Assembly (NCBI GenBank): GCA_964440225.1
Contig: CAYTRM010000001.1
Location: 1-43,003, forward strand
From: an uncultured Thermoleophilia bacterium
GTDB taxonomy: Bacteria > Actinomycetota > Thermoleophilia > UBA2241
DNA: 43,003 bases
Direction: 5' to 3'
The position numbers and the translations under genes were made by a program. Positions within the stretch are counted from its first letter, which is position 1. The number at the start of each line of letters is the position of its first letter. Positions 27,337 through 42,160 of this stretch are shown in pieces. Below the pieces are notes generated by a model. That model worked only from the letters and a program-made list of their open reading frames with translations, was not told the origin of the DNA and did no database searches.

Positions 27337-27705
27337 TCATGGACGCCAACGCATGGCGCCCGACCACCGGATCTCACGACCTCGATCCCGCATGGTCTCA
27401 GCGCGCTCTCGAAGACATCTCGCCGCCGACTCCGTTCTGGCTCGACTCACCACGGGCGTCCGCGGCCAGCCGCCGCTCACCGGCTCGGTGACATGCGACC
27501 GGACGGTCGTTGGCGCCGGCCACGCAGGCCCGCCGGCCGCCTTGCACGCCTGGTAGAAGCGCACGGCCCCGTACAGCCCCTCGTGGTCGGTGACCGCCAG
27601 CGCCGGCATGCCGAGCTCGGCGGCGCGTGCGACCAGCTCGGGGATGCGGCAGGCGCCGTCCCCGAACGAGAACGTGGTGTGCGTGTGCAGATGGACGAAG
27701 CTCAT
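27337..27705 (-). pseudogene. dnaE2: 5' fragment of an error-prone DNA polymerase III alpha (DnaE2-type) gene; only ~58 codons of the PHP domain retained
   Basis: GGAGG RBS. MSFVHLHTHTTFSFGDGACRIPELVARAAELGMPALAVTDHEGLYGAVRFYQACKAAG is the canonical PHP-domain start of DnaE/DnaE2. Similarity ends near nt 27530 and the rest of the 122-aa ORF is unrelated. Confidence 0.65.
27339..27491 (+). pseudogene. Possible 5' stub of an FAD-dependent amine/amino-acid oxidoreductase-type gene (very tentative)
   Basis: GGAGG 4 nt before ATG 27339. MDANAWRP...ISPPTPFWLDSP resembles the pre-GxGxxG N-termini of DadA/SoxB-like oxidases. It terminates after 50 codons, before any dinucleotide-binding motif. Confidence 0.2.
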
Positions 27706-27783
27706 GGCTCGCCTCCGTGGACGCGCGCCAGCCGGACCTGTAGGCTCGCGCCGGCCGTGGGCGACGAGTCTGGAGGTACCGGC

Positions 27784-27876
27784 GTGCGCATCGGCTGGGT
27801 GGAGCTGCTCATCATCGTGATCGTGATCCTCGTGCTGGTGCTCGCCGTCGTGGTGCGCATGGTGCGCATGAGGTAG
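27784..27876 (+). CDS. Candidate 30-aa hydrophobic small protein (VRIGWVELLIIVIVILVLVLAVVVRMVRMR)
   Basis: GGAGG (27772-27776) 7 nt before GTG 27784. All 30 sense codons end in G or C, matching the coding bias of this genome. Single TM helix with an Arg-rich tail. Lies antisense between the ImuB-C-like gene and the dnaE2 stub. Confidence 0.4.
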   Translation: MRIGWVELLIIVIVILVLVLAVVVRMVRMR

Positions 27877-27888
27877 GGGCGCGGCCGC

Positions 27889-28218
27889 TCAACTGAGCAC
27901 CCGCTCCAGCGCCCACGTCTTGCCCAGGCGGTCGTAGCGCAGGTCGACCACGCGGCCGCCGGCGCGCACCCGCCAGTACGAGCGGCTGACGTGCCCGCCC
28001 TCCTTCCACCAGCCGGTCTCGATGACCCAGGTCTCGAGCACGCGCTCGACGCGGTACGTGCGGCGGCGCCAGACGAAGGCGACCGGACGCCGTGCCCGCT
28101 CGTCCCAGCTGACGGCGACCGGCACCGCCTCGCCGTTGCCCGGGCGGCCGGCGCGGGCCCGGGCGGCGCCGGCGTGGGGCTCGGGTCTGTCGCCGGAGGT
28201 GGCTCCGCCGTGGGACAT
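27889..28218 (-). CDS. Small SOS-box-preceded protein resembling the C-terminal region of ImuB
   Basis: AGGAG RBS before ATG 28218. RVERVLETWVIETGWWKEGGHVSRSYWRVRAGGRVVDLRYDRLGKTWALERV follows the ERI..(E/G)WW...R(D/S)Y.RV...G....L......W.L pattern of ImuB C-termini. Positioned directly upstream of dnaE2, as imuB is. Confidence 0.5.
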   Translation of the reverse strand: MSHGGATSGDRPEPHAGAARARAGRPGNGEAVPVAVSWDERARRPVAFVWRRRTYRVERVLETWVIETGWWKEGGHVSRSYWRVRAGGRVVDLRYDRLGKTWALERVLS

Positions 28219-28265
28219 GGAGTGCTCCTGGCAAAGGGGTGCTGCTGGGGCCTTGGAGTGTCGCA

Positions 28266-28279
28266 CGAACATATGTTCG
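28266..28279. promoter_or_regulatory. LexA (SOS/Cheo) box CGAACATATGTTCG
   Basis: Perfect palindrome matching the Gram-positive/actinobacterial consensus CGAAC-N4-GTTCG. Lies 48 nt upstream of the 28218 start and 127 nt upstream of hsdM. Confidence 0.7.
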
Positions 28280-28405
28280 CGTCAACGTCGGACGGAAGAT
28301 GAGACGGTACGTCCGACCCCGGTGGTAGGCTCCGCCCGTTTGAGCCCCACACTGTAGGATGGCCTCGTCCAGAGGCCCGGTTCCCAGGGGGGGAGGCGCA
28401 CCGAC

Positions 28406-29974
28406 ATGGCTCCAAGCACCAAGGAAGCGCAACGCGCCGAACTCCACAAGACGATCTGGCGCATCGCGAACGATCTTCGCGGGTCCGTGGACGGGTGGGA
28501 CTTCAAGACCTACGTGCTCGGCATCCTCTTCTACCGGTTCATCTCCGAGAACCTCACCGCCTACCTGAACGCACAAGAGCGTGAGGCGGGGCGCCCCGAT
28601 TTCGACTATGCCAGGCTCTCCGACGCCGATGCGGAGTTCGGCCGCGCCGAGACGGTGGCCGAGAAGGGCTTCTACATCCTGCCCAGCGAGCTGTTCGAGA
28701 GCGTCCGTGGGCGCGCGGGCTATGACGAGAACCTCAACGAGACGCTCGAGTGCGTGTTCCGCAACATCGAGGGCTCCGCCATCGGCGCCGACAGCGAGGA
28801 CGACCTCAAAGGCCTCTTCGACGACCTCGACGTGAACAGCGCCAAGCTCGGCAACACGGTCGCCAAGCGCAACGAGAAGCTGGTCAAGCTGCTCGATGCG
28901 ATCGGCGATCTCGGCCTGGGCAACTTCGAGGACCACACCATCGACGCGTTCGGCGACGCGTACGAGTACCTCATGCAGATGTACGCGTCGAGCGCGGGCA
29001 AGTCCGGCGGGGAGTTCTACACGCCGCAGGAGGTGAGCGAGCTGCTCGCGCGCATCACCGTGGTGGGCAGGACCGAGGTGAACAAGGTCTACGACCCCGC
29101 GTGCGGATCGGGCTCGCTGCTGCTCAAGTTCGCGAAGGTGCTGGGCAGAGAGAACGTCCGCCAGGGCTTCTTCGGCCAGGAGATCAACCTGACCACGTAC
29201 AACCTCGCGCGCATCAACATGTTCCTGCACGACGTGAACTACGAGCAGTTCGACCTCGCGCATGGGGATACGCTGACCGACCCGGCGCACTGGGACGACG
29301 AGCCGTTCGAGGCGATCGTCTCGAACCCGCCGTACTCGATCAACTGGGACGGCGACGCGAACCCGCTGCTCATCAACGATCCGCGGTTTGCACCGGCCGG
29401 CGTGCTCGCGCCCAAGTCGAGAGCCGATCTCGCCTTCACCATGCACATCCTGAGCTGGCTCGCGGTCGACGGCACCGCGGCGATCGTCGAGTTCCCCGGC
29501 GTGCTCTACCGTGGCGGCGCGGAGCGCAAGATCCGCAAGTACCTCGTCGACAACAACTACGTCGATACGGTCATCCAGCTCCCGCCGGACCTGTTCTTCG
29601 GCACCACCATCGCGACCTGCGTGATCGTGCTCAAGAAGTCGAAGACCGACAACGCGGTGCTCTTCATCGATGCGTCGGCGGAGTTCGTCCGGGGCGGCAA
29701 CAAGAACAAGCTGACCGAGGCGAACCGGCAGAAGATCCTCGATGCCTTCACCGCTCGTGAGGACGCCGAGTACTTCGCCCGCCTCGTCCCCAGCGCCGAG
29801 ATCGCCGGGAACGACTACAACATCGCCGTCTCGTCGTACGTCGAGCAGGAGGACACGACGGAGGCCGTCGATATCGTGGCGCTCAACGCCGAGATCGCCG
29901 GCATTGTCGCGCGACAGACGGAGCTGCGCACCCAGATCGACGCGATCGTCACGGACCTGGAGGGCAGGGCGTGA
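28406..29974 (+). CDS. hsdM: Type I restriction-modification system methyltransferase subunit HsdM (N6-adenine)
   Basis: HsdM N-terminal domain (LHKTIWRIANDLRGSVDGWDFKTYVLGILFYRFISENL), AdoMet motif VYDPACGSGSLLL, catalytic SNPPYS. Confidence 0.95.
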   Translation: MAPSTKEAQRAELHKTIWRIANDLRGSVDGWDFKTYVLGILFYRFISENLTAYLNAQEREAGRPDFDYARLSDADAEFGRAETVAEKGFYILPSELFESVRGRAGYDENLNETLECVFRNIEGSAIGADSEDDLKGLFDDLDVNSAKLGNTVAKRNEKLVKLLDAIGDLGLGNFEDHTIDAFGDAYEYLMQMYASSAGKSGGEFYTPQEVSELLARITVVGRTEVNKVYDPACGSGSLLLKFAKVLGRENVRQGFFGQEINLTTYNLARINMFLHDVNYEQFDLAHGDTLTDPAHWDDEPFEAIVSNPPYSINWDGDANPLLINDPRFAPAGVLAPKSRADLAFTMHILSWLAVDGTAAIVEFPGVLYRGGAERKIRKYLVDNNYVDTVIQLPPDLFFGTTIATCVIVLKKSKTDNAVLFIDASAEFVRGGNKNKLTEANRQKILDAFTAREDAEYFARLVPSAEIAGNDYNIAVSSYVEQEDTTEAVDIVALNAEIAGIVARQTELRTQIDAIVTDLEGRA

Positions 29975-30018
29975 GCCGCATCGACGCGATCATGGCGAAC
30001 TCGGAGCGTGGGTCGTGA
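29971..30018 (+). pseudogene. 15-codon stub derived from an hsdS 5' end (VSRIDAIMANSERGS*)
   Basis: Starts with the same GTGA overlap on the hsdM stop. GTGAGCCGCATCGACG matches the real hsdS start at 32250 (GTGAGCCGCATTGACG) at 15 of the first 16 nt. Its stop overlaps the next gene's GTG (GTGA). Confidence 0.5.
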
Positions 30019-30500
30019 ACGAGCAGGCGCCCGGAGAAATCATCCTGTATTCGCGCGAAGACGGAGCGCCTGCCATCGAGGTGCACCTTGATGCAGACAC
30101 GGTGTGGCTGACTCAACAGCAGCTTGCTGAGCTCTTCCAGACCTCACGAACAAACGTCGTCGAGCACATCCAGCACATCTATGAAGAGGGCGAGCTCAAG
30201 CAGGACGCAACCTGTCGGGATTTCCGACAGGTCGACGCCGCGGAATTCCGGGCACAGAGCCACGAGCCCACGTACATGAAGGACTGGCTCGCGCATCTCG
30301 ACCGTCTGATCGCCGCTATGGAAGCGCCGACACTCAACGGCCCCGGCTCCATAAGCCATCAGCAGGCGATGGAGAAGGCAGAGGGCGAGTACGAGAAGTA
30401 CCGGGCGTTGGCCGACTCGCCTGCTTCGGACGTCGAGCGCGCATATCTCGACGCGGTGAAGCGCGCTCAGCACCGGCTTGAAGAGGGGGAATCGTCGTGA
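30015..30500 (+). CDS. RhuM-family-like protein lacking the central region (N-terminal and C-terminal RhuM segments only)
   Basis: IILYSREDGAPAIEVHLDADTVWLTQQQLAELFQTSRTNVVEHIQHIYEEGEL is the RhuM N-terminus. MKDWLAHLDRLI...GSISHQQAMEKAEGEYEKY is the RhuM C-terminus. They are joined at about 30234-30270 with the long middle part missing. Confidence 0.6.
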   Translation: MNEQAPGEIILYSREDGAPAIEVHLDADTVWLTQQQLAELFQTSRTNVVEHIQHIYEEGELKQDATCRDFRQVDAAEFRAQSHEPTYMKDWLAHLDRLIAAMEAPTLNGPGSISHQQAMEKAEGEYEKYRALADSPASDVERAYLDAVKRAQHRLEEGESS

Positions 30501-31324
30501 GCGCGAGGCCGACAGCGCTGAGCGAGCCGCCGGAGGGCTACGCGGAATGGCTGGTGGGCCTGAAGGACCGCATCCACTCGGCCCAGCAGCGCGCCGCGCT
30601 CGCGGTCAACACCGAGCTGCTCCAGCTGTATTGGGAGATCGGCAACGACATCCTCCAGCGCCAGGCAGAGCGGGGTTGGGGCACCAAGGTCGTCGAGCGT
30701 CTCGCCCACGACCTGCGCAGCGCCTTCCCCGACATGCGAGGGTTCTCCCGAGCGAACCTGTGGTACATGCGCGCCTTCGCGGAGGCGTGGGCCGAGAGCG
30801 AAATCGTCCAACAGCCTGTTGGACGATTGCCGTGGGGGCACAACATCGTGCTCCTCACGAAGCTCAAGGTGTCCGAGGAGCGACTGGCCTACGCCCATGC
30901 GGCCGTCCGGCACGGATGGTCACGCAACGTCCTGGTGATGCAGATCGAGACCCGGCAGCTTGAGCGTCAGGGACGGGCGATCACCAGCTTCGCGCAGGCG
31001 CTTCCGGCGCCACAATCCGACCTCGCCCGTGAATCCCTGAAGGACCCGTACCGGTTCGACTTCCTGGGGATCGGCGATGAGGCCCTTGGTTTCTACCTGA
31101 CCGCCGTCGATGAGCGCATCAAGGACGAACGGGACGAGCCGACCATCGGCCTGCTGCTCTGCAAGAGCAAGAACAAGGTTGTCGCGGAGTACGCCCTTCG
31201 CGACAACAGCCGGCCTCTCGGCATCGCCGAATACCAACTCGTTGAGGCGTTGCCCGAGCCGCTTCAGGCGAGCCTGCCGACTATCGAGCAGATCGAGCGG
31301 GAGCTGGAAGGGGAGTCGTCGTGA
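30497..31324 (+). CDS. YhcG/DUF1016-family protein with the PD-(D/E)xK nuclease core deleted in frame
   Basis: YAEWLVGLKDRIHSAQQRAALAVNTELLQLYWEIGNDILQRQ...LKDPYRFDFLGIGDEA jumps directly to FYLTAVDERIKDERDEPTIGLLLCKSKNKVVAEYAL...IAEYQL. At 275 aa it is ~85 aa shorter than typical members. Junction near nt 31085. Confidence 0.7.
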   Translation: MSARPTALSEPPEGYAEWLVGLKDRIHSAQQRAALAVNTELLQLYWEIGNDILQRQAERGWGTKVVERLAHDLRSAFPDMRGFSRANLWYMRAFAEAWAESEIVQQPVGRLPWGHNIVLLTKLKVSEERLAYAHAAVRHGWSRNVLVMQIETRQLERQGRAITSFAQALPAPQSDLARESLKDPYRFDFLGIGDEALGFYLTAVDERIKDERDEPTIGLLLCKSKNKVVAEYALRDNSRPLGIAEYQLVEALPEPLQASLPTIEQIERELEGESS

Positions 31325-32253
31325 GCGAGCAGGACATCGTCATCTACACCGCTCCAGGCGTGGAGCTCTCCCTGCCGCTCGACCGAGAGCACGAGACCGT
31401 ATGGGCATCCCAACCGCAAATCGCCGAGCTCTTTGCGATCGACAGGACCGGCGCGACCCGGCACATCAACAACGTCTTCAGGGGAGCGGAGGTGGATCGG
31501 GAAAGCAATGTGCAAAAAGTGCACATTGCTGGCTCAGACCGGCCGGTGACGCTGTACAGCCTCGATGTCATCCTCGCCGTCGGGTACCGGGCAAACTCCG
31601 CACGAGCGATGGAGTTCCGTCGCTGGGCGAGTGGCGTTCTGAAACAGTACCTCGTCAAAGGTGCTGCGCTCAACGAGCGTCGTCTGCGCGAAATCGGACA
31701 GGTAGTCCAAGTTCTCAGCCGATCCACCGATGAGCTGGTCGCTGGTGTTGCCGACGTCCTCGCCGGATATCTCCCGGGCCTAAGGCTGCTACGAGACTAC
31801 GATGACGGGCGAATCGAGGCGGCACCCGGTGCAACGCCGGGCTGGGAACTCACCCTCGATGAGGCGCGGGCGGTGATCGGCCATGTGGCTGAGGAGTTCC
31901 CGACGGATGGGCTCATCGGCAAGGAGCGCGGCGACGCCCTGGACGGCGTCGTCGGGGCGATCTACCAGAGCTTTGGTGGGCAGGATCTGTACCCAACCGC
32001 CGAGGAGAAGGCGGCCAACCTGCTGTACCTCGTAGTGAAAGACCACCCGCTGGCCGATGGAAACAAGCGTAGTGCCGCCGCGCTCTTCGTAACCTTCTTG
32101 GCCCGCAACGGCATCCTGGAAGGCGCTGATGGCCGCCTGTGTATCTCGAGCAACGCGCTCGCGGCACTTACGTTGATGGTCGCGATGAGCGCACCTGAGG
32201 AAAAGGGACTCATGGTCGCGCTTCTTGTGCGAATGATCTCGGGAGAAGCGTGA
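31321..32253 (+). CDS. RhuM N-terminal domain fused to a Fic/Doc-family domain
   Basis: N-terminus ETVWASQPQIAELFAIDRTGATRHINNVF...YSLDVILAVGYRANSARAMEFRRWASGVLKQYLVKG (RhuM-like). C-terminus has the Doc-type motif HPLADGNKRSAA (HxFx[DN][AG]NKR with F to L). Confidence 0.8.
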   Translation: MSEQDIVIYTAPGVELSLPLDREHETVWASQPQIAELFAIDRTGATRHINNVFRGAEVDRESNVQKVHIAGSDRPVTLYSLDVILAVGYRANSARAMEFRRWASGVLKQYLVKGAALNERRLREIGQVVQVLSRSTDELVAGVADVLAGYLPGLRLLRDYDDGRIEAAPGATPGWELTLDEARAVIGHVAEEFPTDGLIGKERGDALDGVVGAIYQSFGGQDLYPTAEEKAANLLYLVVKDHPLADGNKRSAAALFVTFLARNGILEGADGRLCISSNALAALTLMVAMSAPEEKGLMVALLVRMISGEA

Positions 32254-33476
32254 GCCGCATTGACGAGCTGATCGCCAGGCTGTGCCCAGATGGGGCGCCT
32301 CGCCGGACGCTGGGCGAGATTGGCCAGTTCCAGCGGGGTCGACGCTTCACGAAGGCGGACGTCGTCGAGGACGGTATCCCAAGCATTCACTATGGAGAGA
32401 TCTATACGCACTACGGTGTTGCCGCCGCCGAAACGGTGTCCCATGTTCGTGCCGACTTGGCCACGCAGCTTCGCTTCGCGAGCCCAGGCGATGTGGTGAT
32501 TGCCGGAGTTGGCGAAACCGTGGAAGACGTGGGTAAGGCGGTCGCCTGGCTTGGCGCAGCGGATGCCGCAATCCATGACGACTGCTTCCGATACCATCAT
32601 TCGATGGATCCCAAGTACGTTTCGTACTACCTACAGACCGAAGCCTTCCATTCGCAGAAGCGTAGGCATGTCGCCCGAGCGAAGGTGAAGCGGCTCTCCG
32701 CCGAAGCTCTCGCCAGCATCGTCATTCCGGTGCCGCCCCTCGAAGTGCAGCGGGAGATCGTGCGGGTGCTCGACACGTTCGCGGCGCTCGAAGCGGAGCT
32801 GGAAGCGGAGCTGGCGGCCCGGCGGCGCCAGTACGCTCATTACCGAGACTCACTCCTGACCTTCCCCGAGGGGGGGGTCCGGCGGGTTCCGATGGGTGAG
32901 GTCGCGAGCATTGTCAGAGGGGCCTCGCCTCGCCCGATTCAGGCCTTCCTCGCTCACGACGAGCGTGGCGTCCCTTGGATTAAGATTGGTGATATCGCGG
33001 CGAGCGGCAAGTACATCACAGGCACCGCGGAGCGGGTCACGGCTGACGGTGCCTCCAAGTCCCGGCGAGTCCATCCGGGTGACTTCGTGCTGTCGAACTC
33101 CATGAGCTTCGGACGCCCGTACATCGTGGGAATCGAGGGCTGCATCCATGACGGCTGGCTTGCCATCAGCGACTTCAACGCATCGTTCGTTCCTGACTTC
33201 CTGTACCACCTCCTGCGTTCGGCTCCAGTTCAGGCTGAGTTCGCGCGGCGTGCCGGTGGTGGGACCGTACAGAACCTCAACGCCGATATCGTGAAAGCGG
33301 TTGTCCTTCCCATTCCGCACCTTGAGGAGCAGGCCCGCATCGTCGCCATCCTCGACGCGTTCGACGCGCTCGTGAACGACCTGTCGAGCGGCCTTCCTGC
33401 CGAGCTTGCCGCGCGCCGCAAGCAGTACGAGTACTACCGCGACCGCTTGCTGACCTTCAAGGAGGCGGCCGCATGA
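32250..33476 (+). CDS. hsdS: Type I R-M specificity subunit HsdS (two target-recognition domains)
   Basis: Two TRD halves, each followed by a conserved helix (LEAELEAELAARRRQYAHYRDSLLTF and LPAELAARRKQYEYYRDRLLTF). GTGA overlap with the upstream gene. Confidence 0.9.
   Translation: MSRIDELIARLCPDGAPRRTLGEIGQFQRGRRFTKADVVEDGIPSIHYGEIYTHYGVAAAETVSHVRADLATQLRFASPGDVVIAGVGETVEDVGKAVAWLGAADAAIHDDCFRYHHSMDPKYVSYYLQTEAFHSQKRRHVARAKVKRLSAEALASIVIPVPPLEVQREIVRVLDTFAALEAELEAELAARRRQYAHYRDSLLTFPEGGVRRVPMGEVASIVRGASPRPIQAFLAHDERGVPWIKIGDIAASGKYITGTAERVTADGASKSRRVHPGDFVLSNSMSFGRPYIVGIEGCIHDGWLAISDFNASFVPDFLYHLLRSAPVQAEFARRAGGGTVQNLNADIVKAVVLPIPHLEEQARIVAILDAFDALVNDLSSGLPAELAARRKQYEYYRDRLLTFKEAAA
32790..32813 (+). 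repeat. Exact 12-bp tandem repeat GAAGCGGAGCTG x2 in the central conserved region of hsdS
   Basis: Read directly. Encodes (EAEL)x2. Confidence 0.9.
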
Positions 33477-34369
33477 CGGGCAAGCACATCGAGCTGTTCC
33501 TCGTAGCGGGCGTCCCGGGCGGTATCACCACTGCGGAGATCGCCGGCTGGGCCGGTCACGTTCTCGCCGGGCCACGCTCTGACCTCGGCGATGTGCTGAG
33601 GCGCCCGGAGGCGAAGCGCAACGGCGCGTACTTCCTGCTCGGCGACGACGAGGAGGCGGTGGGTGGCGTTCGCTGCTACATCGGGCGCACGGAGAACTTC
33701 ATCGCCCGGTTCCGCGACCACTCGGCGAAGAAGGAGTTCTGGGATCGCGTGGTCCTCATCACGTCGAAGGACGACTCGTTCACCGAGGGCCACTGGGGCT
33801 ACCTCGAGTGGCGGCTCGTGGAGCTCGCGAAGCAGGCCGCGCGTGTCACGCTGGCCAACGGCAACGATCCGCAAGGCCGCAGGCTCTCGGAGGCGCAGGC
33901 CTCGGACATGGAGGCGTTCCTGGAGCAACTGCAGATCGTCTTGCCGGTACTCGGCGTGAACGCGATCCGGGTTCGACCGCAGGCGGCGCCGGCGCAAGCA
34001 TCGAAGGATGCCTCTCCGGTCTGCAGCCTGACGAACGCGAAGCTCAAGGTGGAGGCGACCGCGCAGCAGTTGGGCGACGAGTTCACCATGCTGAGAGGTT
34101 CGCGGATCGTCGGCATGTGGTCGGCGATCGGCAAGGCGGAAAGTACACAGCGCTCGTATGCCGCGTATCGGGCTCAACACGAGCGACTGGTGGCGGACGG
34201 CTCGATCGCGGTGGAGGGCGGCGTCGGTGTGCTCACGCGGGACGTGCCGTTCGGCTCGCCGTCCTCGGCGGGGGCCATCGCCCTGGGTCGCTCGTGCAAC
34301 GGTCGCATCGAGTGGAAGACGCCTGACGGGGGCTCGTACGGCGACTGGGAGAACCGTGGGGTGGAGTGA
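33473..34369 (+). CDS. GIY-YIG nuclease-family protein with DUF4357-like C-terminal domain
   Basis: ATGA overlap with the hsdS stop. GAYFLLG...CYIGRTENFIARFRDH (GIY...YIG...R). C-terminal TMLRGSRIV...RSYAAYRAQHERLVADGSI...LTRDVPFGSPSSAGAIALGRSCNG fits DUF4357. Confidence 0.7.
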   Translation: MTGKHIELFLVAGVPGGITTAEIAGWAGHVLAGPRSDLGDVLRRPEAKRNGAYFLLGDDEEAVGGVRCYIGRTENFIARFRDHSAKKEFWDRVVLITSKDDSFTEGHWGYLEWRLVELAKQAARVTLANGNDPQGRRLSEAQASDMEAFLEQLQIVLPVLGVNAIRVRPQAAPAQASKDASPVCSLTNAKLKVEATAQQLGDEFTMLRGSRIVGMWSAIGKAESTQRSYAAYRAQHERLVADGSIAVEGGVGVLTRDVPFGSPSSAGAIALGRSCNGRIEWKTPDGGSYGDWENRGVE

Positions 34370-34491
34370 GGCGGCGACTGCTCCGAATGACATCGTGAGC
34401 CAATAACGATATCAACTGGCTCATTCATGATGCATTTCGTGCCTGGCGCGAGTGCCTCTGGGACGAGTCGTGCTTATCTGTCGTCGCTCGC

Positions 34492-34519
34492 GCCATTTTC
34501 GGTGCGCACCGAAAATGGC
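34492..34519. other. Perfect 28-nt palindrome GCCATTTTCGGTGCGCACCGAAAATGGC (operon-end hairpin or protein-binding site), with a third GAAAATGG half-site at 34528-34535
   Basis: Read directly. Located in the 283-nt AT-richer spacer between the GIY-YIG gene and abiEi. No U-tract. Confidence 0.6.
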
Positions 34520-34585
34520 CCCAGAGTGAAAATGGGCGCAGGACGAATCTGTCGTTGTTGAGTTGCTCAGGGCCGGCGATGACAA

Positions 34586-34646
34586 ACTCGGGAGTGCGAT
34601 AAAAACCTCGGGTAATGTTGACAACTTCCGAGTAATCTATCACACT
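34586..34646 (+). promoter_or_regulatory. Candidate abiE promoter/operator: TTGACA (34618-34623), 17 nt, CACACT (34641-34646); repeated ACTCGGGAGT-type motifs
   Basis: ACTCGGGAGT (34586-34595), CCTCGGGTA (34606-34614) and inverted ACTTCCGAGT (34624-34633) bracket the -35. The -10 ends 6 nt before ATG 34653, compatible with a leaderless transcript. Confidence 0.35.
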
Positions 34647-34652
34647 GCGCCC

Positions 34653-35270
34653 ATGGGACGGGAACCGTCAGGGAGTGCCGTGCGTGCCGCAGAGGAGATC
34701 TTCCGTGCCGCGGGAGGTACTCTCCGCACCCGCGAAGCTGCCGCACGCGGCATTCACTATTCGACCCTCTATGGGATGCGGGATGACGGCCTTCTCGAGC
34801 GACTTTCACGGGGAGTCTATCGCCTTGCAGAGCTCCCAGCGCCGGGCAAGTACGATGTTGTGACCGTGGCCGAGCGTGTTCCTGACGCGGTGCTCTGCCT
34901 CATCAGCGCACTCGACTTCCACGAGATCGGCACGCAGATACCCGCATGGGTGAACATCGCGATAGGACCCAAAGCCTGGCATCCGCGGTTCGACTACCCG
35001 CCCGTCCGCGTGTATCGGATGTCGGGCGAGGCCCTCACGGCGGGCGTGGAAGAGCACACGATCGATGGCACGCCGGTCATGGTGTTCAGTCCGGCGAAGA
35101 CAGTCGCCGACTGCTTCAAGTTCCGGAGCAAGGTGGGGCTGGACGTCGCGCTCGAAGCGCTCCGGGAGACGCTTCGGAGCCATAGGGCGACGCGTGGCGA
35201 GATCATGCACTTTGCCGCCATCGACCGAGTCACGAAGATCGTTCGCCCGTATCTGGAGGCGACGGAATGA
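34653..35270 (+). CDS. abiEi: Type IV toxin-antitoxin system AbiEi-family antitoxin/transcriptional regulator
   Basis: LRTREAAARGIHYSTLYGMRDDGLLERLSRGVYRL (winged-helix N-domain) and CLISALDFHEIGTQIP...VFSPAKTVADCFKFR, typical of AbiEi. Confidence 0.85.
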   Translation: MGREPSGSAVRAAEEIFRAAGGTLRTREAAARGIHYSTLYGMRDDGLLERLSRGVYRLAELPAPGKYDVVTVAERVPDAVLCLISALDFHEIGTQIPAWVNIAIGPKAWHPRFDYPPVRVYRMSGEALTAGVEEHTIDGTPVMVFSPAKTVADCFKFRSKVGLDVALEALRETLRSHRATRGEIMHFAAIDRVTKIVRPYLEATE

Positions 35271-36178
35271 GTCAGCGCGTAGTGAGCAACATACCTGCCT
35301 CAGTCCGTGCACGCCTCCTCAACGAAGCCAGGGCAAGCGGCGACTCGTTCGACCAAGTGCTCCAGTATTTCGCCATCGAACGCTTCCTCTATCGGCTGTC
35401 CAAGACCGAGTGGAGTGGGCGCTTCATAGTTAAGGGCGCGATCATGCTGAGGGCCTGGGACTCATCGCTCGGTCGGCCGACACGAGACATCGACTTTCTG
35501 GGTCGGGTCGACAACTCCCCCGAGGCCCTTGTGGAAGTCGTACGCGAGTGTCTCGCCGTCGCGTATCTCGACGATGGAATAGTGTTCGACCGTGAGATCG
35601 AGGCGACCGCGATCAACGCCGAGCGGGACTACCCTGGAGCAAGGGTGGTGCTTCGCGGCAACCTTGACGGAGCCACGTTCAAGCTGCAGCTCGACGTCGC
35701 GATCGATGACGCGGTCGTACCGGATCCCGCATGGATCGACTACCCGACGCTTCTGGATCTCGACGCGCCACGCATCCTGGCCTACCAGCCCGTGACGGCG
35801 CTCGCGGAGAAGTACGAGACGATCGTACGCAGGGACGTTGAGAACAGCCGTCTGCGAGATTACTACGACATCTGGCTCGTCTCGAGGTCCCGATCGGTTC
35901 TCGGTTCTGAGCTGGCGGCTGCCATCGCCGCGACGTTCGGGCATCGCGGGACGCCTCTGATCGCCGCGATCCCGCCGGGCCTCTCCGAGACCTTCTACGA
36001 GAGCCCAGAAGCACGGAGTTGGTGGCGGTCGTTCCTGCTGACCAAACGAGTCGATGCGCCCGACGACCTTGCGGTCGTGTGCGCGATGATCACCGCGTTC
36101 ATCCTGCCGCCCGCGATCGCAGTCGCTTCGGGAACGCCGTTTGCTCCGAAATGGAATCCGTCGACAGGATGGTCATGA
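35267..36178 (+). CDS. abiEii: AbiEii/AbiGii-family nucleotidyltransferase toxin
   Basis: ATGA overlap with abiEi. FIVKGAIMLRAW...RPTRDIDFLG and LAEKYETIV...NSRLRDYYDIW match the family pattern. Confidence 0.85.
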   Translation: MSQRVVSNIPASVRARLLNEARASGDSFDQVLQYFAIERFLYRLSKTEWSGRFIVKGAIMLRAWDSSLGRPTRDIDFLGRVDNSPEALVEVVRECLAVAYLDDGIVFDREIEATAINAERDYPGARVVLRGNLDGATFKLQLDVAIDDAVVPDPAWIDYPTLLDLDAPRILAYQPVTALAEKYETIVRRDVENSRLRDYYDIWLVSRSRSVLGSELAAAIAATFGHRGTPLIAAIPPGLSETFYESPEARSWWRSFLLTKRVDAPDDLAVVCAMITAFILPPAIAVASGTPFAPKWNPSTGWS

Positions 36179-39100
36179 CCGACGCCAGAACCGCACACTA
36201 CGACCCGATCGTCGTGAGCGCGGAGAGCACGGTCGTGGCCGAGTACTTCTCGGAGTCCGCGGACGAGGCGGCATATCAGTCTGAGGCCGCTCTGGAGCGG
36301 GGGTTCATCAGCGTCCTGCAGTCTCAGGCCTGCGAGTACCTGCCGCTCACGAGCGAGGCCGAGCTCATCGCGAACCTCCGCGTGCAGCTCGAGGCACTCA
36401 ACGGGATCACGTTCAGCGATGGCGAATGGGAGCGGTTCTTCCGGGAGAAGATCGCCGGCGCCAACGAAGGCGCCGTCGAGAAGACGGTGCGCATCCAGGA
36501 GGACCACGTCCAGATCCTGAAGCGCGACGACGGCTCGACCAAGAACGTCGCGCTCATCGACAAGACGAACATCCACAACAACCGTCTTCAGGTCATCAAC
36601 CAGTATGAGGTCGAGCAGCGTGAAGGCGGCACGGCGCGGTCGAATCGCTACGACGTGACGGTGCTGGTGAACGGCCTGCCGATGGTGCACGTCGAGCTCA
36701 AGCGTCGCGGTGTGGACATCCGCGAAGCGTTCAACCAGATCGACCGCTACCAGCGCGACAGCTTCTGGGCAGGCTCCGGCCTGTTCGACTACGTGCAGCT
36801 CTTCGTGGTCAGTAACGGCACGCTCACCAAGTACTACTCCAACACGACCCGCCGACGGCACGTGAGCGAGAGGGCGGGCTCGAAGCGGGTGCGCAAGACC
36901 TCGAGCTCGTTCGAGTTCACCTCCTGGTGGGCGGACGCGACGAACCGACCCATCCAGGATCTCACCGCGTTCGCCAAGACGTTCTTCGCCAGGCACACGC
37001 TGCTCAACATCCTGTGCAAGTACTGCGTGCTCACCGCGGACAGGGCGCTTCTGGTGATGCGACCGTACCAGATCGTCGCCACCGAGCGGATCCTCCAGCG
37101 GATCGAGATCTCCACCAACTACAAGCAGCTCGGCAAAGTCGGCGCGGGCGGCTACGTCTGGCACACGACCGGCTCAGGCAAGACGCTCACGAGCTTCAAG
37201 ACCGCGCAGCTCGCGACCAGGCTGCCCGGCGTCGACAAGGTGCTCTTCGTCGTCGACCGCAAGGACCTCGACTACCAGACCATGCGCGAGTACGACCGGT
37301 TCGAGAAGGGCGCCGCGAACTCCAACACGTCGACGGCGGTGCTGAAGAAGCAGCTCGAGGATCCCGCGGCGAGCATCATCATCACGACGGTCCAGAAGCT
37401 CTCGACCTTCGTCGCGGCGAACAAGGGCCACCGCATCTACGACGGTCACATCGTCATCATCTTCGACGAGTGCCACCGGTCGCAGTTCGGTGAGATGCAC
37501 ACCGCGATCACCAGGGCGTTCAAGCGCTACCACCTCTTCGGCTTCACGGGCACGCCGATCTTCTCGGTCAACGCGGGAAGTGGAGGCAACCCCCAGCTCC
37601 GGACCACAGAGCAGGCCTTCGGCGACAAGCTGCACACCTACACCATCGTCGATGCGATCACCGACAAGAACGTGCTGCCGTTCCGAATCGACTACGTCAA
37701 CACGATCAAGTTGCCGGAGGGCGTCGCCGACGAGCAGGTCTCGGCGATCGACACGGAGAGGGCGCTCCTCGCTCCCGAGCGCATCCGTCAGATCGTCGGC
37801 TACACCCTGGAGCATTTCGACCAGAAGACCCGACGGGCAGAGCGGTACTCGCTGTCCGGCAAGCGCGTTCACGGTTTCAACGCGCTCTTCGCCACGGCCT
37901 CGATCGAGGCCGCGAAGCGCTACTACCTTGAGTTCAAGGAGCAGCAGAAGGATCTGCCGCCCGATCGCAGGCTCAAGGTCGGGATCATCTTCTCGTATGC
38001 ACCGAACGAGACGGTGGACGACTACCTGGACGAGGAGGGCTTCGAGACCGGCGCTCTCGACCAATCCTCACGCGACTTCCTGGGCGACGCGATCCGGGAC
38101 TACAACGCGCTGTTCGGCACGAGCTTCGACACCTCGGCCGACAGGTTCCAGAACTACTACAAGGACCTCTCGCTGCGCCTGAAGCGCCGCGAGATCGACC
38201 TGGTCGTCGTCGTGAACATGTTCCTCACGGGGTTCGACTCGACGACCCTGAACACGCTGTTCGCCGACAAGAACCTGCGCGCGCACGGGCTCGTTCAGGC
38301 CTACTCGCGCACGAACCGCATCCTCAACTCCGTGAAGACCTACGGCAACATCGTCTCGTTCCGCGATCTGGAGCAGGAGACCAACGACGCGATCGCGATC
38401 TTCGGCAACAAGGATGCTCGCGGGATCGTGCTGCTCAAGCCGTACGGCGACTACTACTCCGCGTACGCCGCGAAGGTCGCGTTGCTGCTCTTTCAGTACC
38501 CACCGGGGACGCGGATCGTGGGGGAGTCGGAGCAGAAGGAGTTCATCGCGCTCTTCGGGGCCATCCTGCGCCTGCAGAACATCCTCACCTCGTTCGACGA
38601 CTTCGCCGGCAACGAGATCCTCACGGAGCGCCAGGCGCAGGACTATCGCAGCGTGTACCTCGACCTCTACGCCGAACTGCGCGGCAAGGCGGATGCCGAC
38701 AAGGCGCCGATCAACGACGACATCGTCTTCGAGATCGAGCTCATCAAGCAGGTCGAGATCAACGTCGACTACATCCTGATGCTCGTCCAGAAGTGGCGCG
38801 ACGCCCACGGTGACGGCTCCGACGTGGAGATCCGCGCGTCGATCAGCCGCGCCGTCGACGCCAGCCCCAGCCTGCGCAACAAGAAGGACCTGATCGAAGC
38901 CTTCGTCGATTCCGTCTCGGTCGACGGAAAGATTGACGAGGAGTGGCGGGCGTTCGTGCGTGCGAGGCGTGAGGCCGAGCTTGACGCGATCATCGCAGCG
39001 GAGGGGCTCCGTCCGGACGCGACTCGTGCGTTCATCGACACAGCCTTCCGCGATGGCGCCGTGCAGACGACGGGTACGGCAATCACCAGGGTGCTGCCGC

Positions 39101-39207
39101 CGGTGTCGCGATTCTCGCCCGACGGGGAGCACGGAGAGAAGAAGCAGCGCGTGCTGGCGAAGCTCGGTGAGTTCTTCGAGCGGTTCTTCGGGCTCGGCAC
39201 GAGCTGA
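36169..39207 (+). CDS. hsdR: Type I restriction endonuclease subunit HsdR (type IC-like length)
   Basis: Nuclease region YDVTVLVNGLPMVHVELKRRG, helicase motif I WHTTGSGKTLTSF, motif II IIFDECHRSQ. Start at ATG 36169 (alternatives 36151 or 36175) overlaps the abiEii stop at 36176-36178. Confidence 0.92.
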   Translation: MVMTDARTAHYDPIVVSAESTVVAEYFSESADEAAYQSEAALERGFISVLQSQACEYLPLTSEAELIANLRVQLEALNGITFSDGEWERFFREKIAGANEGAVEKTVRIQEDHVQILKRDDGSTKNVALIDKTNIHNNRLQVINQYEVEQREGGTARSNRYDVTVLVNGLPMVHVELKRRGVDIREAFNQIDRYQRDSFWAGSGLFDYVQLFVVSNGTLTKYYSNTTRRRHVSERAGSKRVRKTSSSFEFTSWWADATNRPIQDLTAFAKTFFARHTLLNILCKYCVLTADRALLVMRPYQIVATERILQRIEISTNYKQLGKVGAGGYVWHTTGSGKTLTSFKTAQLATRLPGVDKVLFVVDRKDLDYQTMREYDRFEKGAANSNTSTAVLKKQLEDPAASIIITTVQKLSTFVAANKGHRIYDGHIVIIFDECHRSQFGEMHTAITRAFKRYHLFGFTGTPIFSVNAGSGGNPQLRTTEQAFGDKLHTYTIVDAITDKNVLPFRIDYVNTIKLPEGVADEQVSAIDTERALLAPERIRQIVGYTLEHFDQKTRRAERYSLSGKRVHGFNALFATASIEAAKRYYLEFKEQQKDLPPDRRLKVGIIFSYAPNETVDDYLDEEGFETGALDQSSRDFLGDAIRDYNALFGTSFDTSADRFQNYYKDLSLRLKRREIDLVVVVNMFLTGFDSTTLNTLFADKNLRAHGLVQAYSRTNRILNSVKTYGNIVSFRDLEQETNDAIAIFGNKDARGIVLLKPYGDYYSAYAAKVALLLFQYPPGTRIVGESEQKEFIALFGAILRLQNILTSFDDFAGNEILTERQAQDYRSVYLDLYAELRGKADADKAPINDDIVFEIELIKQVEINVDYILMLVQKWRDAHGDGSDVEIRASISRAVDASPSLRNKKDLIEAFVDSVSVDGKIDEEWRAFVRARREAELDAIIAAEGLRPDATRAFIDTAFRDGAVQTTGTAITRVLPPVSRFSPDGEHGEKKQRVLAKLGEFFERFFGLGTS

Positions 39208-39210
39208 GGC

Positions 39211-39993
39211 TCAGGCGGTGACGCCCACCTCGGCGAGGTCGTCCACGACCACGTCGGCGCCGGCTGCGGCGAGCTCCGCAGCCTGGCCCAGCCGGTCCAC
39301 CCCGATCACGAGGCCGAACCCGCCGCGGCGTCCGGCCTCGACGCCGGAGAGGGCGTCCTCGACCACCACGGAGCGCGCCGCGTCCACGCCCATGCGGCGC
39401 GCCGCCTCCAGGTACATCGCCGGGTCCGGCTTGCCCGGCAGCCCGACCTCCGCCGCGACGACGCCGTCCACGCGCACCTCGAAGAGGTCTGTCGTGCCGG
39501 TCACGTCGAGCACCATGGCGGTGTTCTTGCTCGACGACATGAGGCCGGTCCGGATGCCGGCCGCGTGCAACTGCCCGATGAGCTCGACCGTGGTGGGGAA
39601 CGTCTTGACGCCGTGCTCGCGCACCTCGGCGTTGAAGAAGGCGTTCTTGCCGTTGCCGAGCCCGCACACCGTCGTGCGCTCCGGCGGGTCGGAGGGGTCG
39701 CCCCACGGCAGCTCGATGCCGCGTGAGGCGAGGAAGTCGCGTACGCCGTCGTAGCGCGGCTTGCCGTCCACGTAGCGGGCGTAGTCGGCGTCGAGGTCGA
39801 AGGGCCGGAGGGCGGGATCGGGCGTGGCGCCCGGGCTTGCGCCCGCCCGGGCGGCGCGCTCGGCGAGGTACGCGTCGAAGAGCCGCTTCCACGCCGCCGC
39901 GTGCACGGCGGCCGACTGGGTGACGACGCCGTCCAGGTCGAAGATGACGGCGTCGAACCTGCCCCTGTCGATGGTCACGCGCTCGTCGTCCAC
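39211..39993 (-). CDS. HAD-superfamily hydrolase, beta-phosphoglucomutase-like
   Basis: Motif I AVIFDLDGVVT, motif II MSSSKN, GKPDPAMY, motif III VVVEDALSGVEAG. Preferred start is GTG 39993, preceded by GGGAGG-N6. The ORF track's upstream ATG at 40134 is possible. Confidence 0.8.
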   Translation of the reverse strand: MDDERVTIDRGRFDAVIFDLDGVVTQSAAVHAAAWKRLFDAYLAERAARAGASPGATPDPALRPFDLDADYARYVDGKPRYDGVRDFLASRGIELPWGDPSDPPERTTVCGLGNGKNAFFNAEVREHGVKTFPTTVELIGQLHAAGIRTGLMSSSKNTAMVLDVTGTTDLFEVRVDGVVAAEVGLPGKPDPAMYLEAARRMGVDAARSVVVEDALSGVEAGRRGGFGLVIGVDRLGQAAELAAAGADVVVDDLAEVGVTA

Positions 39994-40300
39994 GATCCGC
40001 CTCCCGTCCTGGTGATCCCGGAGATGGTACCCGCTTTCGCGCGACCGCGAGCCGGCATCATCGCCGGGTCGGACGGAGTCGCTGCAGAGCGCCGTATTCG
40101 TGGCTGAACCCGCCGTGTCTGTGCGACGTCTCATCCTTCAGCGAGCGGATGCGACGTTTTTCGCATCAGGCTGCGTCCAATCAGCAAGGCCACAGGCTTG
40201 GTACCCCGGGGCCGATGTGAGACCATAGGCCCTGGCCGTCGCCGAGCTTTTGGGGAAATCGTCGGCGCCATCGGGCATCAACGATCAAAAGGGGGGGATC

Positions 40301-42160
40301 GTGACCCATTCACGACGCGTTCATCCGTTACTCATCCTGCTCGTCGTCGCGGCGGTGGCCGTGTTAGGTCTTGTGTGGGCCATGGACGCGGCCGGGTCGG
40401 AGGAGGCCTCGCCGGCCGCGGCCGACACCGGCAAGGTCGTCTACAAGGTCGGGTGGAACGGCGATCCCGACAACATCAACCCGCTCATCGGCTACACGTC
40501 GCCGGCGTTCGAGATCTGGTACCTCACCTACGACTCGCTCGTCGGGTACGACCCGGCCACGCTCGCCCCGATGAAGGGTGAGGAGTCCACCGGCCTCGCC
40601 ACCGAATGGTCGGTGAGCGACGACGGGCTCACGTGGACCTTCACCATCCGCGAGGGCGCCACCTGGCACGACGGTGTGCCGCTCACCGCCAAGGACGTGG
40701 CGTTCACCTACAGCTACATCATCGACAACGAGATGGAGAACTGGACCGCGTACACCAACCTCATCGAGACGGCGACGGCGGTCGACGACACCACCGTGGT
40801 GTTCGAGTGCTCGAAGCCCAAGCCGGACATGACGCGCCACTACGTGCCGATCCTGCCGGAGCACGTCTGGTCCAAGATCGACCCGAAGAAGGCGGTACGC
40901 GGCTACTCGAACGACCCGCCCTACATCGGCTCCGGGCCGTTCAAGGCCATGGAGTGGAAGAAGGACTCGCACGTCAAGCTGGTCGCCAACCCCGACTACT
41001 GGGGCGGCGCGCCCAAGATCGACGAGCTCTACTGGATGTTCTTCACCAACGTCGACACCATGCTGCAGGACCTCAAGTCCGGCAACATCGACGGCTGCGT
41101 GGATCTGCTCGCCGGCCAGCTCAAGCAGCTCGAGAACGAGCCCGGCATCGAGGCCAGCGCCATCGCCATGGACGGGTTCAACGAGCTGGGCTTCAACTGT
41201 TACAAGGACGGCCCCAGCAAGGGCCACCCGGCGCTCAAGGACTGGAAGTTCCGCCAGGCGCTCAACTGGGCGGTCGATCTGCAGAAGGCGGTCGACGTGG
41301 TGTGGCTCGGCTACACGGCGCCGGGCTCGACGATCATCCCGCCGGACTACTACAGCGACCCCGACTGGCACTGGGAGCCGCCGGCCGACGTCAAGTACAG
41401 CTACGATCCGGAGAAGGCAGGCGCGGCTTTGGACGCGGCGGGCTACCCGGACTCGGACGGTGACGGCGCGCGTGAGTACAAGGGCAAGCCGATCGAGCTC
41501 GGGCTGATCTCCCGCTCCGAGTCGCCGGAGAGCCAGCAGACGGCCAAGCTCATCGCCGGCTGGTTCCAGGATGTGGGCATCAAGGTCAACGTCGAGGTCA
41601 TGGACGAGGCCACGCTCACCGACAACCACCTGCTCAACTACGACGGCGACACCTTCACGCCCGACTACGACATGTTCCTGTGGGGCTGGTACCTCGACTT
41701 CGACCCGGGCTCGATGCTGAGCTACTTCACCAAGGCCCAGATCGAGAACTGGAGCGACTGCGCCTGGTGGGATCCGGAGTACGAGGAACTGTACGTCAAG
41801 CAGGGCGAGGAGCTCGATCCGGTCACGCGCAAGGAGTACATCGACCGGATGCAGCAGATCCTCTACGAGCAGACGCCCTACATCGTCACCGACTACGGCC
41901 CGGACTTCGAGGCCTACAACACCGAGAAGTGGGAGGGCTACATCGCCATCCCCGACCCGAACGGCAACCGGCTCATGCCGCCGTTCGGCAACTGCGGCAA
42001 CGCCAACTTCCTGAGCATCGGTCCGAAGACCGCGGTCGCGGCCGAGGAGAGCAGCGGCGGCAACACGACGCTGTGGGTGGTCATCGGCGTCGCGGTCGCC
42101 ATCGTGGTGATAGTGGCCGTGCTGCTCCTGCGCCGCCGGCCGCGCGCGACGGAGGAGTGA
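40301..42160 (+). CDS. ABC-transporter substrate-binding protein, family 5, N-terminal signal/anchor plus C-terminal TM anchor (SBP3)
   Basis: AAAGGGGGGGA RBS before GTG 40301. WHDGVPLTAKDVAFTYS, ILPEHVW, GSGPF. C-terminus SSGGNTTLWVVIGVAVAIVVIVAVLLLRRRPRATEE. Confidence 0.85.
   Translation: MTHSRRVHPLLILLVVAAVAVLGLVWAMDAAGSEEASPAAADTGKVVYKVGWNGDPDNINPLIGYTSPAFEIWYLTYDSLVGYDPATLAPMKGEESTGLATEWSVSDDGLTWTFTIREGATWHDGVPLTAKDVAFTYSYIIDNEMENWTAYTNLIETATAVDDTTVVFECSKPKPDMTRHYVPILPEHVWSKIDPKKAVRGYSNDPPYIGSGPFKAMEWKKDSHVKLVANPDYWGGAPKIDELYWMFFTNVDTMLQDLKSGNIDGCVDLLAGQLKQLENEPGIEASAIAMDGFNELGFNCYKDGPSKGHPALKDWKFRQALNWAVDLQKAVDVVWLGYTAPGSTIIPPDYYSDPDWHWEPPADVKYSYDPEKAGAALDAAGYPDSDGDGAREYKGKPIELGLISRSESPESQQTAKLIAGWFQDVGIKVNVEVMDEATLTDNHLLNYDGDTFTPDYDMFLWGWYLDFDPGSMLSYFTKAQIENWSDCAWWDPEYEELYVKQGEELDPVTRKEYIDRMQQILYEQTPYIVTDYGPDFEAYNTEKWEGYIAIPDPNGNRLMPPFGNCGNANFLSIGPKTAVAAEESSGGNTTLWVVIGVAVAIVVIVAVLLLRRRPRATEE

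Follow-up and report, generated by a model that had tools for sequence, protein, structure and literature searches.

An AbiE Toxin-Antitoxin Cassette at the hsdS-hsdR Junction of a Type IC Restriction-Modification Operon: A Putative AbiEi-Repressed Promoter Upstream of the Restriction Subunit Gene

Introduction

Abortive-infection genes have been described within type I restriction-modification (R-M) loci on several occasions. In the Escherichia coli type IC locus EcoprrI, the gene of the anticodon nuclease PrrC is embedded (PMC3874165, PMC12707154), and in the RptR-RMS-DarTG2-M48 island of enteropathogenic E. coli (Nucleic Acids Research (NAR) 2025), DarTG2 is located between hsdS and hsdR at a site that was called a likely recombination hotspot, and a small repressor governs transcription of the island by attaching to repeats at the promoter from which it is itself expressed (PMC12255303). 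On a broader scale, the preprint of Payne et al. on "guilt-by-embedding" reported that type I R-M, BREX, DISARM, and Hma systems harbour embedded defence genes, of which 96.7% are co-oriented with the host system, and suggested co-regulation (10.1101/2024.01.29.577857). For the toxin-antitoxin system AbiE, autorepression by the antitoxin AbiEi via inverted repeats covering -35, -10, and +1 was shown experimentally in Streptococcus agalactiae (PMC3985639). Here, we analyze an hsd locus on a 43,003-nucleotide (nt) stretch of DNA from an uncultured Thermoleophilia bacterium of the lineage UBA2241 (assembly GCA_964440225.1, contig CAYTRM010000001.1, positions 1 to 43,003 of the forward strand; referred to as the window), in which an abiEi-abiEii pair directly precedes the restriction subunit gene hsdR, specifically focusing on how hsdR may be transcribed and translated.

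How the transcription of type I restriction subunits is regulated is understood only poorly, and the best-known controls are post-translational. A clade in which hsdR permanently stands behind an autorepressed toxin-antitoxin promoter and is coupled to the toxin gene would constitute a simple and clonable test of whether embedding rewires the expression of the host system, as published surveys suggest. Were the regulatory link absent, the locus would be one more composite defence islet.

Results

We consider it probable, with a probability of about 0.6, that hsdR is transcribed as the third cistron from an AbiEi-repressed, leaderless promoter and additionally by read-through from hsdM, and that its translation depends on termination at abiEii. 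According to this model, the hsdS-hsdR junction of a type IC operon, a known slot for defence cargo, would hold an intact AbiE cassette (a type IV toxin-antitoxin and abortive-infection system), whose promoter, located inside a 15-bp inverted-repeat operator of the type bound by AbiEi, would start a leaderless abiEi mRNA. Translation of hsdR would be coupled to termination of abiEii in the same way as it would be to hsdS in cargo-free relatives. HsdR would thereby be produced from two kinds of transcript, namely those started at the AbiEi-repressed promoter and those read through from hsdM that survive two hairpins in the spacer upstream of abiEi; bound AbiEi may also hinder the latter. Gene identities, the anatomy of the locus, cargo turnover, the conserved gene order, the operator, and the coupling are direct observations on the sequences and are described in the following.

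All genes from hsdM to hsdR lie on the + strand and form one co-oriented string in the order hsdM, three accessory genes, hsdS, a DUF4357 gene, a spacer of 283 nt (34370-34652), abiEi, abiEii, and hsdR, in which every junction other than the spacer is a 4-nt overlap. AbiEi (34653-35270, +; 205 aa), the antitoxin and winged-helix repressor, matches Pfam AbiEi_4 above the cut-off (E 2e-10) and PADLOC AbiEi over its full length (E 2e-74); its match to the solved AbiEi of S. agalactiae (PDB 6y8q) is weak (E 1e-4). AbiEii (35267-36178, +) is a DUF1814 nucleotidyltransferase toxin according to Pfam AbiEii (E 2e-35) and the S. agalactiae toxin (PDB 9hlo_B, E 3e-29), and the columns of its KG, DxD, EK, and R..D..D motifs (K56-G57, D74/D76, E181-K182, R195/D198/D201) are invariant in 31 homologues. 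No named NCBIfam family was found for AbiEi, AbiEii, or the DUF4357 protein. The two abiE genes overlap as ATGA at 35267-35270; in most of about 80 related loci, abiEi likewise directly precedes abiEii, either overlapping it or within about 25 nt.

The type IC restriction subunit gene hsdR (36175-39207, +) encodes six HsdR Pfam domains including EcoR124_C (E 6e-71), and its product matches the HsdR of EcoR124I (PDB 2w00) with E 7e-244 over residues 20-821. It has two in-frame ATG codons at 36169 and 36175: The latter overlaps the abiEii stop codon (36176-36178) as ATGA, has an AGGA Shine-Dalgarno motif 5 nt upstream, and is the start common to the closest relative L100. This is the only full-length HsdR in the assembly, a metagenome-assembled genome of 612 contigs and 79% completeness. 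The locus as a whole corresponds to a type IC R-M system in M-S-R order, which also occurs in 13 related loci. An earlier note on the window had described hsdR as detached from hsdMS; the distance of 6.2 kb between the end of hsdM and the start of hsdR is present in the sequence, as are the overlaps and the spacer length given in that note, and hsdR nevertheless remains co-oriented with hsdMS in a single gene string.

In the spacer, the promoter and operator of abiE occupy 34598-34646 (+). A -35 element TTGACA (34618-34623) is separated by 17 nt from a -10 element CACACT (34641-34646), and the ATG of abiEi follows 6 nt later, for which reason the abiEi mRNA is predicted to be leaderless. The arms of a 15-bp inverted repeat, GATAAAAACCTCGGG at 34598-34612 and CCGAGTAATCTATC at 34628-34641, bracket the -35 element and overlap the -10 element. 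Over the 60 nt that precede abiEi, 14 loci show almost no variation, regardless of whether the cassette is embedded or stand-alone, and yield the consensus GATAnAAACCTCGGA-N-AATGTT(T/G/C)ACAA-NN-TCCGAGGAATCTATCACA(A/C)T-N6-ATG. Moreover, the arms covary symmetrically (some loci have CCTCGG/CCGAGG, others CGTCGG/CCGAC), as is expected of the site of a dimeric repressor, and more distant abiEi genes are likewise preceded by a large inverted repeat that ends at the ATG. Because of this invariant operator with its covarying arms and of the autorepression established for S. agalactiae, the cassette very probably carries its own AbiEi-repressed promoter into the hsd operon; AbiEi would then bind at 34598-34641. 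The full operator occurs once in the window, and no second AbiEi operator was found near hsdM. The earlier note had anticipated both an abiE promoter in the spacer and an autorepressing AbiEi, which agrees with the conserved site and with the experimental precedent.

A built-in consensus scan of the spacer returned neither a canonical terminator nor a promoter, and as it is too strict for the abiE -10 element, we added a looser sigma70 scan of our own that covered the window and the loci L004, L005, and L100. The abiE promoter is the only shared sigma70-like site in this relaxed scan, scoring in the window, L004, and L005; the -10 element of L100 (CACTCT) fell below the threshold. An independent hsdR promoter inside abiEii was sought by the same scan, and no site within abiEii is shared among these four closest loci, which is weak evidence against an internal promoter.

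The junction between abiEii and hsdR varies in length. The two genes overlap by 4 nt in the window and in L100, and are separated by 7 nt in L005 and L111, 22 nt in L116, 46 nt in L117 and L118, and 69 nt, the longest gap seen, in L004 and L113. In the loci with a gap, an ATG that overlaps the abiEii stop codon (TGATG) opens a mini-ORF (open reading frame) of 3, 8, 16, or 25 codons, whose own stop codon overlaps the hsdR start in six of the seven cases (L005 2166-2177, L111 6912-6923, L116 6912-6938, L117 6909-6959, L118 4081-4131, L113 6835-6912); in L004, the relay frame is shortened by a TGG-to-TGA change. Coupling of hsdR to abiEii, either direct or via a relay mini-ORF, is thereby kept in eight of the nine loci that share the arrangement. 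It is the open frame that is kept, as the peptide sequences are not conserved, and the joint probability of such frames arising by chance is about 0.004 by shuffling with randomised frame over four gap classes, a crude value whose classes are possibly non-independent. The TGATG sequence is also present in stand-alone abiEii genes, where it forms tandem stop codons; the relay ATG itself is therefore no special adaptation.

A comparison of hsdR starts at the window (36175-36183) and at the junctions of L096, L105, L094, L104, and L106 places this coupling in a wider frame: The start (A/G)TG-ACC-GAC overlaps the preceding gene by 1-4 nt, be it hsdS, a Fic gene, abiEii, or another nucleotidyltransferase gene, and in cargo-free relatives hsdR overlaps hsdS as GTGA. 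Since the hsdR start overlaps whichever gene precedes it, coupling to the upstream gene is, judged from these junctions, an ancestral property of hsdR that cargo insertions preserve, and not a feature of AbiE. The translational coupling to AbiE claimed in the earlier note thus holds as far as the conserved overlap is concerned, without being a peculiarity of the toxin gene. The hsdS-hsdR junction can be regarded as a cargo slot in which the coupling of hsdR survives whatever is inserted.

To place the arrangement in its phylogenetic context, we surveyed it from both sides. An alignment of AbiEii homologues, used as the query of a GTDB-wide scan, recovered 80 loci, three of which have an hsdR orthologue beside the AbiE pair: The two closest, L004 and L005, are co-oriented and share hsdM-hsdS-DUF4357-abiEi-abiEii-hsdR, and L015 carries a different, inverted pair. 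A general association of the AbiE family with hsdR was rejected, as most of the 80 loci have unrelated neighbours. Closer metagenomic homologues added L111/L112, L113, L116, L117, and L118, and a same-genus genome added L100. In nine loci, abiEi-abiEii is located directly 5' of a type IC hsdR and after hsdS or the DUF4357 gene, always in the same orientation, with identities to the window of 68-83% for AbiEii, 81-93% for AbiEi, 77-90% for HsdR, and 87-93% for HsdM; the synteny comparison proposed in the earlier note thus shows hsdR as the next and tightly joined cistron throughout. AbiEii homologues at 63-68% identity (L114, L119, L120, L007) are stand-alone, and the abiE-hsdR association is specific to one clade. 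Across the nine loci, AbiEii diverges faster than AbiEi, HsdR, or HsdM.

From the side of hsdR, 401 genomes sampled from the same class were searched at an orthologue cut-off of E <= 1e-100, which yielded an hsdR orthologue in 15 of them with varying upstream content. The hsdS-hsdR slot is empty in L096, L105, and L094, where the genes overlap as GTGA, in L103, where an overlap follows from tblastn coordinates, and in L101, which has a short gap. It holds a Fic gene in L104 and L109; DUF4357, Fic, and abiE in L100; two Fic genes with a distant AbiEii-like nucleotidyltransferase of 289 aa and a 375-aa partner in L106 and also L108; and MazEF with an inverted AbiE pair in L102, which is the same locus as L015. 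The characteristics of embedded cargo are accordingly found here, namely genes that lie between hsd genes, are co-oriented with them, and differ between orthologous operons at the same junction.

All abiE-bearing loci fall into one clade of the HsdR tree, with weak support (84/89) and the fork drawn as open. This clade also comprises L104, L106, and L108 with other cargo (Fic, second nucleotidyltransferase), which belong to the subclade of the window (100/100), and the cargo-free operons form the outgroups. Such a grouping suggests one old insertion of abiE at the hsdS-hsdR junction, followed by long co-inheritance and, in some lineages, by later replacement of the cargo. At 9900-9990 of L015, a remnant of a window-type abiE operator, in front of which a 14-nt remnant of the DUF4357 3' end is left, lies beside the different, opposite-oriented AbiE pair, which we read as the scar of a cassette replacement.

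Two further observations concern nucleotidyltransferases of this family. In L106 (3491-5497, - strand) and also in L108, the protein encoded before hsdR belongs to the AbiEii family (289 aa, Pfam 27.5 bits), its 375-aa partner matched no Pfam, PADLOC, or NCBIfam model, and hsdM, DUF4357, and hsdR of L106 appear frameshifted. In other phyla, AbiE pairs of the same family are located directly 5' of large TOTE AEP-primase/SF2-helicase genes (L057 3747-6185, L063 6514-9021, L073, and L044), with -23 to +36 nt between them. AbiE thus stands before a helicase defence gene of the ResIII type in a second setting.

Upstream of the operator, the spacer contains two hairpin elements. A perfect 28-nt palindrome (34492-34519), which together with a third GAAAATGG half-site (34528-34535) spans 34492-34535 (+), is kept in L100 and L015, where the substitutions are compensatory or yield G.U pairs, as would fit a hairpin in the sense-strand RNA, and is degenerate in L111. 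The upstream transcript is likely to end in a hairpin formed by this element, which may serve as a terminator lacking U residues or for stabilisation, or may mark the boundary of a cassette. The palindrome is unique in the assembly, so that a repeated genomic element was rejected. Across the window, L100, L015, and L111, the palindrome and its third half-site lie downstream of three different genes (DUF4357, Fic, mazF).

The second element, an inverted repeat TTGTCGTTG...CGATGACAA at about 34544-34590 (+), forms 17 pairs in the consensus fold of five loci, several of them U.G on the sense strand, and recurs upstream of the abiE promoter in L100, L113, L117, and L118. It probably represents an older component of the hsdS-hsdR junction. 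On the reverse strand of L102, 15 nt separate it from the hsdR start, and it immediately precedes the ribosome-binding site of hsdR. Both hairpins may attenuate read-through from hsdM. An Rfam search of 34200-36400 returned only a meaningless miRNA match (E 0.11).

The remaining genes of the string are consistent with the assignment of the locus. The methylase subunit gene hsdM of the type IC R-M system (28406-29974, +) matches Pfam N6_Mtase (E 2e-111) and HsdM_N, and HsdM orthologues in related loci are 87-96% identical to that of the window. A first block of cargo between hsdM and hsdS (29971-32253, +) consists, according to Pfam, of a RhuM fragment, a DUF1016/YhcG gene, and a RhuM-Fic gene, whose product matches the PADLOC phage-defence candidates PDC-S23 and PDC-S05. 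The specificity subunit gene hsdS (32250-33476, +), with two stretches of Pfam Methylase_S, overlaps both neighbours by 4 nt. Its stop codon is overlapped by the DUF4357 cargo gene (33473-34369, +; Pfam DUF4357 E 7e-15, PADLOC PDC-S14 E 2e-108), which is found in six of the nine abiE-bearing loci. About 130 nt upstream of hsdM, at 28266-28279 of the window, lies a LexA-box-like palindrome, CGAACATATGTTCG, which matters if hsdM and hsdR turn out to be separately controlled.

With 62-65%, the G+C content of the hsd island (window 27500-40500) differs from the 72-73% of both flanks, and the abiE genes are not separable from the hsd genes by base composition. In the window, as in several relatives of the same genus, the gene after hsdR encodes a HAD hydrolase. 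Because of the G+C contrast and this shared neighbour, the data suggest that the island was acquired horizontally long ago and occupies a fixed site in the chromosome.

Discussion

How much hsdR mRNA each promoter contributes we infer, as we do the leaderless start, from sequence features, and several of these weigh against the model that we favor. Neither spacer hairpin has a U-tract, no canonical terminator separates abiEi from the upstream genes, and in L004 and L005 the spacer is only 67-72 nt long and lacks both hairpins, so that read-through from hsdM into abiE and hsdR is likely there and could predominate. Under autorepression, toxin-antitoxin promoters tend to be weak at steady state. 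A recognisable -35 element is frequently missing from actinobacterial promoters, and a consensus scan may thus miss an internal hsdR promoter. Finally, the slot of L102/L015 contains another AbiE pair in inverted orientation, and hsdR can therefore be expressed without standing downstream of abiE.

In a first alternative explanation, hsdR is transcribed mainly from the hsdM promoter, the abiE promoter is nearly shut by AbiEi and contributes little, and the adjacency reflects insertion of a cassette into a permissive hotspot without regulatory meaning. Besides the short, hairpin-less spacers and the missing terminator, the co-oriented genes from hsdM to hsdR with their 4-nt overlaps, the hsdS/hsdR overlap in cargo-free orthologues, the unrelated cargo (Fic, MazEF, another nucleotidyltransferase pair) in the same slot of close relatives, and the co-orientation of 96.7% of embedded genes in general (10.1101/2024.01.29.577857) all agree with it. 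We still regard it as unlikely, if by no means negligible: In the window and most relatives, DUF4357 and abiE are separated by two conserved and stable hairpins, a strongly conserved promoter lies directly upstream, and an operator-bound repressor would stand in the path of the polymerase. Some read-through is nevertheless to be expected, since there is no terminator, the spacers of L004 and L005 are short, and hsdS and hsdR overlap in cargo-free relatives; for these reasons, the claim in the earlier note that the abiE promoter is the only plausible one for hsdR goes too far. The opposite extreme, in which AbiEi is the effective transcriptional controller of HsdR throughout this type IC clade because most hsdR mRNA starts at its promoter and read-through is blocked, strikes us as rather doubtful, a shade more so than dominant read-through. 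The same holds for the full form of the proposal in the earlier note, in which toxin-antitoxin autoregulation would govern HsdR and hsdM would be under separate control.

An hsdR promoter of its own in the 3' part of abiEii, or in the short gap of the relatives, would make restriction independent of both upstream promoters. In EcoR124I-type systems, hsdR is described as having a separate promoter; promoters of high-GC Actinomycetota are hard to detect by consensus, and the inverted AbiE pair of L102 shows that hsdR can be expressed from the sequence just upstream of it. Such a promoter is improbable in the window, because no sigma70-like site inside abiEii is common to the four closest loci, the junction is a 4-nt overlap, and the relay mini-ORFs of the relatives point to a dependence on upstream translation. 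Even less probable, if only by a little, is a link at the protein level as between PrrC and EcoprrI, which would be compatible with the transcriptional explanations: AbiEii or the AbiE pair would sense the restriction complex and fire when a phage inhibits restriction, and conserved adjacency together with a matched HsdR dosage would serve this partnership of AbiE and Hsd. The linkage is indeed conserved over substantial divergence, three lineages of AbiE-type nucleotidyltransferases occur beside hsdR (the types of the window, of L106/L108, and of the inverted L102 pair), AbiE pairs also lie directly 5' of the TOTE helicase defence genes of other phyla, and PrrC provides a precedent in a type IC system (PMC3874165, PMC12707154). 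The cargo of the window has its own antitoxin, however, which argues against a PrrC-like dependence on the R-M complex; in other bacteria, AbiE functions by itself (PMC3985639), close relatives of this very pair are stand-alone, and unrelated cargo occupies the same slot.

On the model that we favor, transcription of hsdR as a third cistron behind abiE supplemented by read-through, the benefit would consist in a homeostatically low dose of HsdR or in a back-up abortive-infection system that is co-inherited with restriction. The activity of type IC enzymes is thought to depend on the dose of HsdR. If AbiEi were indeed the controller, any event that lowers the occupancy of its operator, such as infection or a shut-off of translation, would increase both the toxin and HsdR, and the antitoxin would act as the "C protein" of a type I enzyme. 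With C-protein-type control, only the logic of a repressor encoded upstream of a restriction gene is comparable, as no C-protein gene is present and the candidate regulator is the 205-aa AbiEi. A delay of restriction relative to modification, as envisaged in the earlier note, does not follow from this arrangement, because in a naive cell without AbiEi an autorepressed promoter should be fully open, not closed.

Conclusion

Our search of the literature retrieved no paper that describes AbiE before hsdR, and the locus is best understood by comparison with its closest counterparts. With EcoprrI-PrrC it shares a type IC R-M system and an abortive-infection toxin gene that is embedded and co-oriented in the hsd operon. 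PrrC, however, combines ABC-ATPase and RNase in one protein, which the restriction enzyme silences and the Stp peptide of phage T4 releases, whereas the cargo of the window is a two-gene nucleotidyltransferase toxin-antitoxin system with its own antitoxin-repressor and promoter. With the RptR-RMS-DarTG2-M48 island it has in common that the hsdS-hsdR junction of a type I R-M system accommodates a toxin-antitoxin abortive-infection system. The repressor of that island is encoded by a separate first gene and controls a promoter upstream of hsdM; in the window, the antitoxin doubles as the candidate repressor, and its promoter is internal to the operon, preceding hsdR alone among the hsd genes.

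The cassette proper resembles AbiE of S. agalactiae (PMC3985639) in its winged helix-turn-helix antitoxin, its DUF1814 nucleotidyltransferase toxin, the overlapping bicistron, and an inverted-repeat operator over the promoter. It differs in that one 15-bp inverted repeat around the -35 element replaces the 23-3-23 arrangement, that the transcript is predicted to be leaderless instead of starting 26 nt upstream of the ATG, and that a third, unrelated cistron, hsdR, follows the pair. The guilt-by-embedding survey likewise describes co-oriented cargo that varies at the same junction of related operons, and the neighbours in the window match the PADLOC candidates PDC-S14, PDC-S23, and PDC-S05; being a census, the survey contains no analysis of AbiE promoters or of the coupling between hsdR and cargo (10.1101/2024.01.29.577857). 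The abiE-hsdR locus is thus a well-conserved example of the established nesting of abortive-infection and toxin-antitoxin genes in type I operons.

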